64,000 nt of DNA from Escherichia coli. Its GTDB lineage: Bacteria; Pseudomonadota; Gammaproteobacteria; Enterobacterales; Enterobacteriaceae. This document shows, piece by piece, positions 29,646 to 30,770 of the stretch. Location: NCBI RefSeq assembly GCF_003334405.1, contig NZ_QOWM01000004.1. One strand, written 5' to 3'. The position numbers were made by a program, and so were the translations under genes. Under the pieces are notes generated by a model. The model did no database searches and had not been told where the DNA came from. It saw only the letters and a program-made list of their open reading frames with translations. The first letter of the stretch is position 1, and the number at the start of each line of letters is the position of its first letter.

Positions 29646-29668
29646 TCTCTCCATGTGTTAAATATTGA

Positions 29669-29700
29669 AACGGGCGTATAACACGCCCGTTGTTTTATTT
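29669..29700 (+). terminator. icd rho-independent terminator
   Basis: Hairpin aacgggcgt-ataac-acgcccgtt followed by tgttttattt. Confidence 0.75.
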
Positions 29701-29747
29701 ATGTGGATATTATTAATAGCATATCGAGCATATTTATATGAAGCCCA

Positions 29748-30071
29748 TTACTTGAGCCCATATGGGCATATTTTTATAATGCAACTATTATGTAAACATT
29801 TATTTGTTATTTTGCTTTCTCCTGGAGGACACTCTTGACTGCTTTTGAGTAAACTCCATAAATCCTTGTTGAATGGTGCGATGTGATAAATAGTAATAGG
29901 ATATTCTTTATCCTTAAGGATAATACCAGACTTAACCGGTGTAAATATACTGCCAGGAGGGAGAAATATAGTAGATTGATACCAGATGATCATTTTCATA
30001 TTACCCCATATGGCTGAAAAAGATATACCACATGTAGGTTGAATTACCGTGTCAATTACTATCCACTTCAT
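29748..30071 (-). CDS. iraM: Anti-adaptor protein IraM (107 aa), stabilises RpoS by blocking RssB
   Basis: ORF 29748..30071 [18 protein letters not shown]...; AT-rich gene immediately downstream of icd. Confidence 0.88.
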
Positions 30072-30770
30072 TTGTTATGTCTTATCCCACGGTATTTAAT
30101 ATGGTTCATTAGGATGTTTATTTCTTGATTTTGCATATGAGTATATTACCCCCCCCTCAAAAAAATAAATTAATTAAAATGATGGCTTATATAAAATAAA
30201 ATTTAAAGCAAGGAATCTCAATGGATGTTAAACAAAATGAGATTTTGTGAAAGCAATAAATTATTGACTTCGTTTTAGATTTGTTTAGCTATAATGTTAT
30301 ACATTCAAATGACTGAACATCCTGTAATTAAAACATAGCCTTTATGCTACTTTGTGCCAATTTGCTAAACATTATGGTTGCCTTTTTATATAACGATAAT
30401 AATGAATATAAGCATGACATGAGAATAAGGTTTCAATTTTTGAGTTATATAGGAATGATTTAACCTGTTCCTGGCTAAAATACATATAACCGGATGATGA
30501 CTAAACCAAAATACATGTGCGTTAAGTATTGAAACGGACGTGTGGCACGGCCGTTGTTTTTATAAATATGTTAACCGTTATAAAATAACGTATCAAAAGT
30601 CAAGTGATCACATTTCAAATATCAAGTTGATAGTATTAGTCTGGTGATTATTTATGGGTGACAATAAAAAGACAGTATTAATCATCCATAGAGATAGTCT
30701 CTGCACTTTTATTTCCATTATGCTAATGCCTTACTGAATTATGAAGCATTTCTTAAGTATCCAACTTTAG

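Follow-up and report, generated by a model that had tools for sequence, protein, structure and literature searches.

Gene organisation around icd and iraM

The window analysed here is a stretch of Escherichia coli DNA with a length of 64,000 nucleotides. The locus of interest carries, in this order, rluE (minus strand), icd (plus strand), iraM (minus strand), ymgK, ymgL, ycgX (minus strand), bluR and bluF. Coordinates are collected in Table 1. The icd gene is the target for integration of elements of the e14 and phage 21 type, and e14 splits icd in strains of the K-12 MG1655 type. The window itself is free of e14; otherwise identical genomes that carry e14 occur.

In E. coli, the stress sigma factor RpoS is stabilised by anti-adaptors, of which IraM is one. 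The membership of IraM in family PF11183 is borne out by its homologs, which bear precomputed PF11183 assignments and are named anti-adapter protein IraM in their sources. We refer to the terminator that follows icd as T1 or copy 1, to a second copy of it beyond iraM as T2 or copy 2, and to the DNA between the two as the islet. The GC content between the copies is 27–34%, compared with approximately 50–53% in icd. As a first-pass annotation made from the sequence had described, this AT-rich segment holds nothing but iraM, on the minus strand, and its upstream region, in which ymgK lies. The same annotation had placed copy 2 on the plus strand with no plus-strand gene upstream of it, and the open reading frame (ORF) list of the window agrees.

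Table 1. Features of the icd–iraM region, with positions in the 64-kb window
Feature	Position	Strand	Basis or remark
icd (NADP isocitrate dehydrogenase)	28395..29645	+	ORF list; name from annotation of identical genomes
Segment duplicated by e14-/phage 21-type elements	29482..29698	+	last ~165 bp of icd, spacer, terminator, 'AT'; crossover core at left edge
Copy 1 (T1), icd rho-independent terminator	29651..29696	+	repeat search and alignment
T1 hairpin	29669-29691		9-bp stem, then T-run
Spacer from T1 T-run to iraM stop codon	29697..29747		51 nt; alignment with the spacer of the larger island
iraM (anti-adaptor of RssB; PmrD-fold family PF11183)	29748..30071	-	ORF and annotation in identical genomes
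iraM upstream region	30072..30512	-	includes ymgK; 30194-30452 colinear with the larger island
ymgK, annotated small ORF	30328-30372		14 codons
Copy 2 (T2)	30513..30560	+	repeat search and alignment
Right flank (ymgL, ycgX)	30561..31175	-	common to islet-bearing and empty-site genomes
ymgL	30608-30718	-	
ycgX (DUF1398)	30771-31175	-	

The 5' part of ycgX is approximately 72% identical at the nucleotide level to a lambda ybcV-like gene. A relative with 70% amino acid identity lies between prophage lysis and terminase genes in E. albertii, and another, with 77% identity, lies near fliDST in a further Escherichia species. Given this likeness of ycgX to phage genes, the right flank of the islet may itself be old phage DNA.

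According to the literature, iraM is controlled by PhoP. The PhoP-box consensus KGTTTAN5KGTTTA is matched perfectly at only one place in the window (GGTTTATTTAATGTTTA), on the minus strand at 23780–23796, about 6 kb from iraM; the matches inside the islet have two mismatches each and carry no information.

The icd terminator is repeated on the far side of iraM

A repeat search of the window paired positions 29654–29696 with 30518–30560, two stretches of 43 nt that are 84% identical and lie 864 bp apart. Over the full extent of T1 and T2 the identity is about 83%, with one 2-nt indel. In a local alignment (CATGT--GTTAAAT...GTTGTTTT against CATGTGCGTTAAGT...GTTGTTTT), the copies were joined over 47 columns containing six mismatches and the indel. 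The score of this alignment was 53, compared with 15.1 ± 2.4 for shuffled sequence, and none of 500 dinucleotide shuffles reached it. A degenerate 34-nt pattern that fits both copies has these two matches alone in the 64-kb window, against an expectation of 0. On the right, the repeat ends with the T-run; on the left, it begins 8 nt past the icd stop codon. The repeat is therefore real, as the first-pass annotation had proposed when it described some 55 bp after the icd stop that recur, hairpin and T-run included, with about 80% identity. The measured value is 83–84%. A figure near 80% holds for the K-12-type allele present in the window, but in other iraM-positive lineages the identity is ~93%.

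Rho-independent terminators are generically alike, in that a T-run comes after a GC-rich stem, and two of them may resemble each other by chance or convergence without being related. For the two copies described here we give this explanation practically no credence. Their identity is not confined to a generic hairpin but takes in the T-run, the stem and the greater part of the loop, along with about 20 unpaired nucleotides on the 5' side of the stem (ACATGTG..TTAA.TATTGAA). The alignment and pattern statistics given above exclude an unrelated terminator, and the ancestral allele of copy 2, described below, is closer still to copy 1.

The similarity does not extend into the neighbouring DNA of the window. 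No homology to icd coding sequence was detected upstream of T2 (score 14, null 16.2), and the T2-upstream DNA matched the icd 3' end, the P arm of phage 21 and the right end of e14 no better than shuffled sequence did. The left end of the islet, compared with the phage 21 arm, also scored at or below shuffle level. A search against Rfam gave no match above threshold.

Hairpin stability and alleles of the two copies

T1 has the stable GC-rich hairpin and the T-run by which rho-independent terminators are predicted. Its RNA folds with a computed free energy of −18.4 kcal/mol (z −4.75) when read from the plus strand and −17.3 kcal/mol (z −4.63) when read from the minus strand. On these predictions, T1 is probably bidirectional and hence would also end iraM transcripts. 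The T2 allele of the window folds at −10.2 kcal/mol (z −0.28), which is no better than shuffled sequence, and the T2 allele of other lineages at −15.3 kcal/mol (z −2.1).

Six further iraM-positive lineages have this other allele, as do several records of viral contigs that run on into host DNA; there, copy 2 reads CATGTGCGTTAAGTATTGAAACGGGCGTATGGCACGCCCGTTG(T/G)TTT. Its stem is perfect, and an additional CG, one A>G substitution and a change of AA to GG in the loop are all that separates it from copy 1. This allele accounts for the identity of ~93% mentioned above. The K-12-type copy 2 of the window carries three further changes, and its hairpin is weaker. Two of the three, G>A and C>G, strike both partners of a single stem base pair.

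These paired stem changes produce an A·G mismatch and not a compensated pair. An intermediate copy 2 allele, with the stem G>A alone, was seen at one locus (L061), indicating that the K-12-type substitutions were acquired stepwise.

In 17 haplotypes, the stem of T1 is unchanged throughout and its loop is unchanged in 16, while stem-breaking changes are confined to copy 2. Two explanations of copy 2 were rejected in the course of this comparison. The first was a generally faster decay: the variability of copy 2 across the 17 haplotypes is 16%, equal to that of the flanks, and only the stem-breaking changes stand out. The second was a foreign origin, considered while 84% identity was thought too diverged for a native copy and abandoned once the ~93% allele had been found. 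Copy 2 is most likely a relic of the native icd terminator, displaced to what would be the attR side, and is decaying in the K-12 lineage.

Presence and absence of the islet among E. coli genomes

We surveyed 5426 complete E. coli genomes, all of which have a match to the region. The site is empty in 1036 of them, including CFT073: a single terminator is joined at its T-run to TATAAATATG...ymgL-ycgX, the flank found just beyond copy 2 in the window. In 3933 genomes there is a match to the iraM upstream region, and about 3930 bear the islet with both terminator copies. An iraM-negative relative with both copies would speak against arrival of the islet by insertion; none was found among the iraM-negative E. 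coli examined (L001, L002, L003, L032, L033, L055, L066 and L075), every one of which has a single copy. The islet is an indel polymorphism whose limits coincide exactly with the repeats. An unrooted neighbour-joining tree of 600 nt of the right flank placed the empty-site haplotypes in one clade and the islet haplotypes in another, so that one event accounts for the polymorphism.

Two strains carry IS200C at this site. In E. coli EC17CM6 (locus L044, positions 548 and 2126), IS200C lies directly after the T-run of each copy, in the same orientation; the insertion point, between GTTGTTTT and TGTGCACAG at both copies, corresponds to window positions 29696/29697 and 30560/30561. In strain 2009C-3133 (locus L003, position 1848), a single IS200C replaces the whole islet, and the flank of this strain nests among islet-bearing haplotypes. 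Most simply, the 2009C-3133 state is a secondary deletion between two IS200C copies. The insertions suggest that IS200C targets this hairpin and its T-run.

The polymorphism may also be read in the opposite direction, with an islet ancestral to E. coli and empty sites produced by recombination between the terminator copies or by integrase-mediated excision. This reading concerns polarity only and is compatible with an earlier origin of the islet from an integrated element. In an unrooted flank tree one loss is as parsimonious as one gain, and the IS200C strains EC17CM6 and 2009C-3133 illustrate that the islet can be lost secondarily, if by another route. Loss by recombination is harder to reconcile with the empty sites themselves. 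They retain all copy 1-specific bases, which would confine the crossover to the last ~15 identical nucleotides, and no hybrid terminator occurs in eight empty-site sequences of several alleles. Moreover, apart from the IS200C case, there are no sporadic empty sites within the islet-bearing clade. We therefore favour gain of the islet and regard ancestral presence as unlikely, though it deserves some weight.

When 100,044 species genomes were scanned for the terminator pattern, E. whittamii was the only Escherichia to give a match. This species was rejected as a clean outgroup, since its downstream DNA differs and contains an e14-like arm fragment after the terminator. Two further outgroup candidates were also discarded: the Citrobacter bluRF module, which is not near icd, and the YcgX relatives of Escherichia sp. 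and E. albertii, which are located elsewhere or in prophages.

In E. whittamii (L016, 8660–8700), the DNA after the terminator (TTATTAGCACGTCAATAGTTATCAAAACCCC) resembles the e14-type arm, and an unrelated YebC/PmpR-like gene comes next; an e14-like scar may be present at icd in E. whittamii, too. In Citrobacter freundii (L034–L036), bluF-bluR-ymgA/ariR lie beside fimbrial and sucrose-utilisation genes, and icd, ycgX and iraM are not nearby.

Elements that integrate at the icd 3' end

Genomes bearing e14 or a lambdoid prophage depart from the window at ~29481–29487, inside icd and about 165 bp before its stop codon (positions 132, 133 and 138 of the query taken from window 29350–30800). All phage 21-like phages match positions 13–229 of a second query, window 29470–29720. 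A copy of window 29482–29698 is present in phage 21 and its relatives, with the attP arm sites and int behind it; in the phage 21 record, the annotation lists attP arm sites and int as well as an ICDH-like pseudogene and a terminator. A more diverged version of the same module of icd 3' end and terminator is carried by e14. The terminator homologs of e14 and of the phage 21-like phages end exactly at the T-run, and several alleles of the terminator are in circulation among host and phage copies. Since these elements bring their own icd 3' end, integration duplicates approximately 215 bp, of which the terminator is the distal tail. In 1612 of the 5426 genomes, an integrase of this kind adjoins the icd terminator today.

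The terminator is consequently not the crossover site: the core used by e14 and phage 21 lies ~165 bp further upstream, near window position 29482 and inside icd. An integrase that abuts the terminator in O157:H7 had been considered as proof that the terminator serves as attB, but this was rejected, because this phage 21-like prophage inserts within icd and supplies the terminator itself.

In O157:H7 strain F7386 (L006/L007), a phage 21/DLP12-like prophage is located at icd, and the DNA from iraM through ycgX, bluRF and ymgABC to the truncated autotransporter gene by minE is missing. This gap leaves the pathotype without chromosomal iraM and without the whole BluR/BluF module.

A larger homologous island at the same site

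By tracing the YcgX and TrkH-like proteins, we found a larger homologous island at the same place in 19 of the 5426 complete genomes (loci L085, L087, L089 and L045; for example strain Z0117EC0005). Starting from icd, it consists of T1, an e14-type arm, an ORF that we call ORF455, an IS remnant, a trkG-like gene, a hairpin with a T-run, ~50 nt of spacer, an iraM homolog (iraM') and a ymgB-like gene. These are followed by a colinear stretch of ~74% identity that reaches to ...CCAAAACGCAT, by ~195 nt, ATCAAGAATATGT, a 14-nt spacer, the terminator copy T2', a ymgL-like flank and ycgX. By annotation, trkG is otherwise known from prophage. No integrase gene is present in the island, and the crossover core is preserved at none of the loci examined.

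ORF455 (7680–9047; L085/L089, Z0117EC0005) lies directly after the e14-type arm; for its product of 455 residues, no Pfam hit is recorded.

Both ends of the island carry information that is missing from the window. On the left, the sequence TTGTTAGCATGCTAACGGTTATCAAAATTTTATCAAAA after T1 is identical to the left arm of e14 at 36 of 38 positions, and a looser likeness extends over ~110 nt; the alignment of the two arms scored 66 against a null of 16.4 (0/300). On the right, ATCAAGAATATGT represents the last 13 nt of the icd ORF and precedes T2' at the native spacing of 14 nt (L085/L045). Besides these 13 nt, the island shows a weak colinear match to icd, TGTTCAG..GTTTGGTG (P~0.05). The spacer itself matches the native one at 7 of 14 positions, and the terminator copy T2' matches at 35 of 40. 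T2 and T2' both have G in TTAAGT, where all icd-adjacent alleles have A, and this shared base suggests a common descent from one displaced terminator.

The interior of the island can be followed in the window as well. The nucleotide identity between iraM' and the iraM of the window is 80%, and window 30194–30452, continuing to ...CCAAAA(T/C)ACAT, is colinear with the island at ~74%. The 51 nt that separate T1 from the stop codon of iraM align with the spacer that lies between the hairpin of the trkG/iraM interval and iraM'.

An e14-type arm next to the left terminator copy, together with a displaced icd end next to the right one, is the layout of an e14-type integration into icd. The suggestion of the first-pass annotation that the repeat marks a duplicated attachment-site flank, left by insertion at the icd 3' hotspot of e14, gains support from the larger island, with the correction that the terminator is the tail of the duplication and not the site of crossover. 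At locus L088, a present-day e14 is found upstream of icdC, T1 and the old arm, an arrangement that shows successive use of the icd site. Our literature search returned no description of the terminator repeat, of the empty site or of the larger island.

The larger island also bears on an alternative scheme, in which the islet was inserted directly at the terminator. Here, a small DNA, circular or linear, with iraM and a sequence resembling the terminator would have recombined with the icd terminator itself by crossover within CACGCCCGTTGTTTT; alternatively, a replication template switch at the hairpin would have copied iraM from a prophage and then re-copied the terminator, with no event inside icd. 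Such a scheme fits the window well, where the repeat is limited to the terminator unit and both junctions fall exactly at T-runs. All single-copy alleles have the copy 1-type loop, as expected if the insert brought copy 2, and the use by IS200C of the same phosphodiester after the T-run at both copies marks the site as insertion-prone. Direct insertion predicts, however, neither the 13 nt of icd coding sequence before the right copy nor the e14-type arm at the left of the larger island. In addition, the copy 2-type terminator is absent from phages and viral contigs outside the islet, and the ancestral copy 2 allele falls inside the native allele range, so that a foreign source is unneeded. We consider direct insertion improbable.

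Relatives of IraM are carried by lambdoid phages

At the nucleotide level, iraM is 72.6% identical to genes of Stx2 phages, which corresponds to 65% identity in amino acids. Relatives of IraM with 55–73% amino acid identity are found in the late regions of lambdoid prophages or in other islands; in prophages, the paralogs sit between Q/stx and the nanS-p/lysis genes. None of the sequenced e14-like phages in the phage collection has an iraM homolog, and the IraM relatives in that collection occur in lambdoid Stx phages. The element behind the islet is best described as an e14-type attachment arm combined with phage-type cargo.

Variation of iraM among strains, its absence from CFT073 and its placement 'on the e14 prophage' are already published (PMC4045071), as is the duplication of 163–165 bp of icd by e14 (PMC6379469). 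In strains that carry e14, iraM is located outside attR, after icdC and the terminator, and in the window and many other genomes iraM is present without any e14. Therefore, iraM is not part of e14 and belongs to an older remnant beside the modern one.

Proposed origin of the iraM islet

We consider it likely that the iraM islet is the remnant of an integrative element of the e14 family, a defective prophage, that was once integrated at the att core in the icd 3' end. The incoming element would have carried its own version of the last ~165 bp of icd and the terminator. Upon integration, this element-borne end would have been fused to icd on the left, where its terminator is now T1, and the native icd 3' end and terminator would have been displaced to the right end of the element, beside ymgL and ycgX, where the terminator persists as T2. 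The integrase and nearly all other genes would later have been lost through internal deletions.

Starting from a layout such as that of the larger island, three deletions would yield the K-12-type islet of the window. The first would run from the T-run of T1 to the T-run of the hairpin just downstream of iraM and remove the e14-type arm, the 455-codon ORF and the trkG-like gene; the left edge of the 51-nt spacer would then be a deletion junction at which two T-runs were fused. The second would remove the ymgB-like gene upstream of iraM. The third would join ...CCAAAAC(A/G)CAT to the CAT (CATGTG) of the native spacer before T2 and take away the icd coding remnant. The end product would be T1, 51 nt, iraM with ~440 nt of upstream DNA, and T2. 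T1 would have been retained as the terminator of icd and probably of iraM too, with T2 left as a decaying relic. If placed correctly, these junctions would explain why the repeat of the window is confined to the terminator and why both of its ends lie at T-runs, and a terminator-specific recombinase would be unneeded. The sequences directly show the repeat, the empty site, the larger homologous island with its e14-type arm and icd-end remnant, and the phage affiliation of the IraM relatives; from these we infer the descent of the islet from such a structure, the deletion junctions and the gain, as opposed to loss, of the islet.

Several points weigh against this origin. The support for it comes from a relative that is only 74–80% identical to the islet, and islet and island could go back to separate integrations of related elements. 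The e14-like phages of the phage collection, moreover, lack an iraM homolog. The T1 hairpin of the larger island is of the host/phage 21 type and not the variant of e14, which requires recombination within the duplicated module. The polarity is unrooted, since E. whittamii, the one outgroup recovered, is not a clean one. Finally, the deletion junctions rest on microhomologies of 3–5 nt in diverged sequence.

A more speculative view gives the hairpin an active part. The icd terminator hairpin could be a landing and breakpoint site at which several unrelated processes act on the same phosphodiester after the T-run, namely IS200C insertion at both copies, the deletion endpoints and the boundary of the phage-borne modules; T2 may have persisted in most lineages as an insulator that shields the promoter region of the acquired, PhoP-controlled iraM from transcription of ymgL/ycgX. 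We rate this view as a long shot. If it is true, the repeat would have contributed to the safe wiring of a phage cargo gene into host regulation.

The element origin that we favour would give iraM a concrete source, namely an older element of the e14 family at the icd hotspot, of whose cargo genes iraM would be the last to survive. It invokes no new mechanism, but a decayed integrative element at a known hotspot, and would illustrate how phage cargo can become a regulator of the host when elements repeatedly integrate and decay at a single site. The analysis defines the exact boundaries of the islet and the allele of the empty site, which is of use for annotation, where iraM is to be placed outside e14, and for strain comparisons of RpoS regulation.

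Comparison with e14, phage 21-like prophages and other IraM paralogs

One of the closest known parallels is e14 of K-12, whose attL and attR derive from a duplicated icd 3' end and which leaves the pseudogene icdC. The islet shares with e14 the target and the kind of duplication, of icd 3' end and terminator, that marks both ends. By way of its larger relative, it also shares the e14-type arm beside the left copy and the displaced icd end beside the right one. Unlike e14, the window has no integrase, excisionase or arm sites, and its right repeat is devoid of icd coding sequence. The content of the islet is ~0.8 kb, compared with 15 kb for e14, and the terminator allele of the left copy is of the host/phage 21 type and not e14's own variant.

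Phage 21-like prophages (Jouyvirus) carry an ICDH-like pseudogene and a terminator that ends at the same base as that of T1 (window 29698) and is duplicated on integration. They are lambdoid, as are the phages that carry IraM paralogs. The arm that follows their terminator (ATGATGATGTAAAATCTTCCCCAAAA) is, in contrast, unlike both the left end of the islet and the e14-type left end of the larger island. The IraM paralogs, among them IraL of CFT073, are horizontally acquired cargo of prophages and islands. They have in common with chromosomal iraM the family PF11183, a high AT content and variable presence, and they occur in lambdoid late regions or islands (PMC4045071). Chromosomal iraM differs from them in having no phage neighbours left and in lying beside a housekeeping gene, enclosed by two copies of a host terminator.

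Of the features that define elements with a duplicated icd attachment site, the window shows target-derived direct repeats flanking the insert (T1 and T2), and relatives with an unoccupied site, joined at the T-run, are those 1036 of 5426 genomes described above. A right repeat that reaches back to the core with icd coding sequence (icdC) is missing from the window, and there is neither an integrase ORF between the repeats nor integrase or arm sequence inside the element end. An assignment to insertion sequences or transposons was not borne out: there is no transposase ORF, no inverted repeats pair the ends of the islet, and the repeat is an imperfect one of ~47 nt. The IS200C elements that lie beside the terminator copies in some strains are separate, later insertions.
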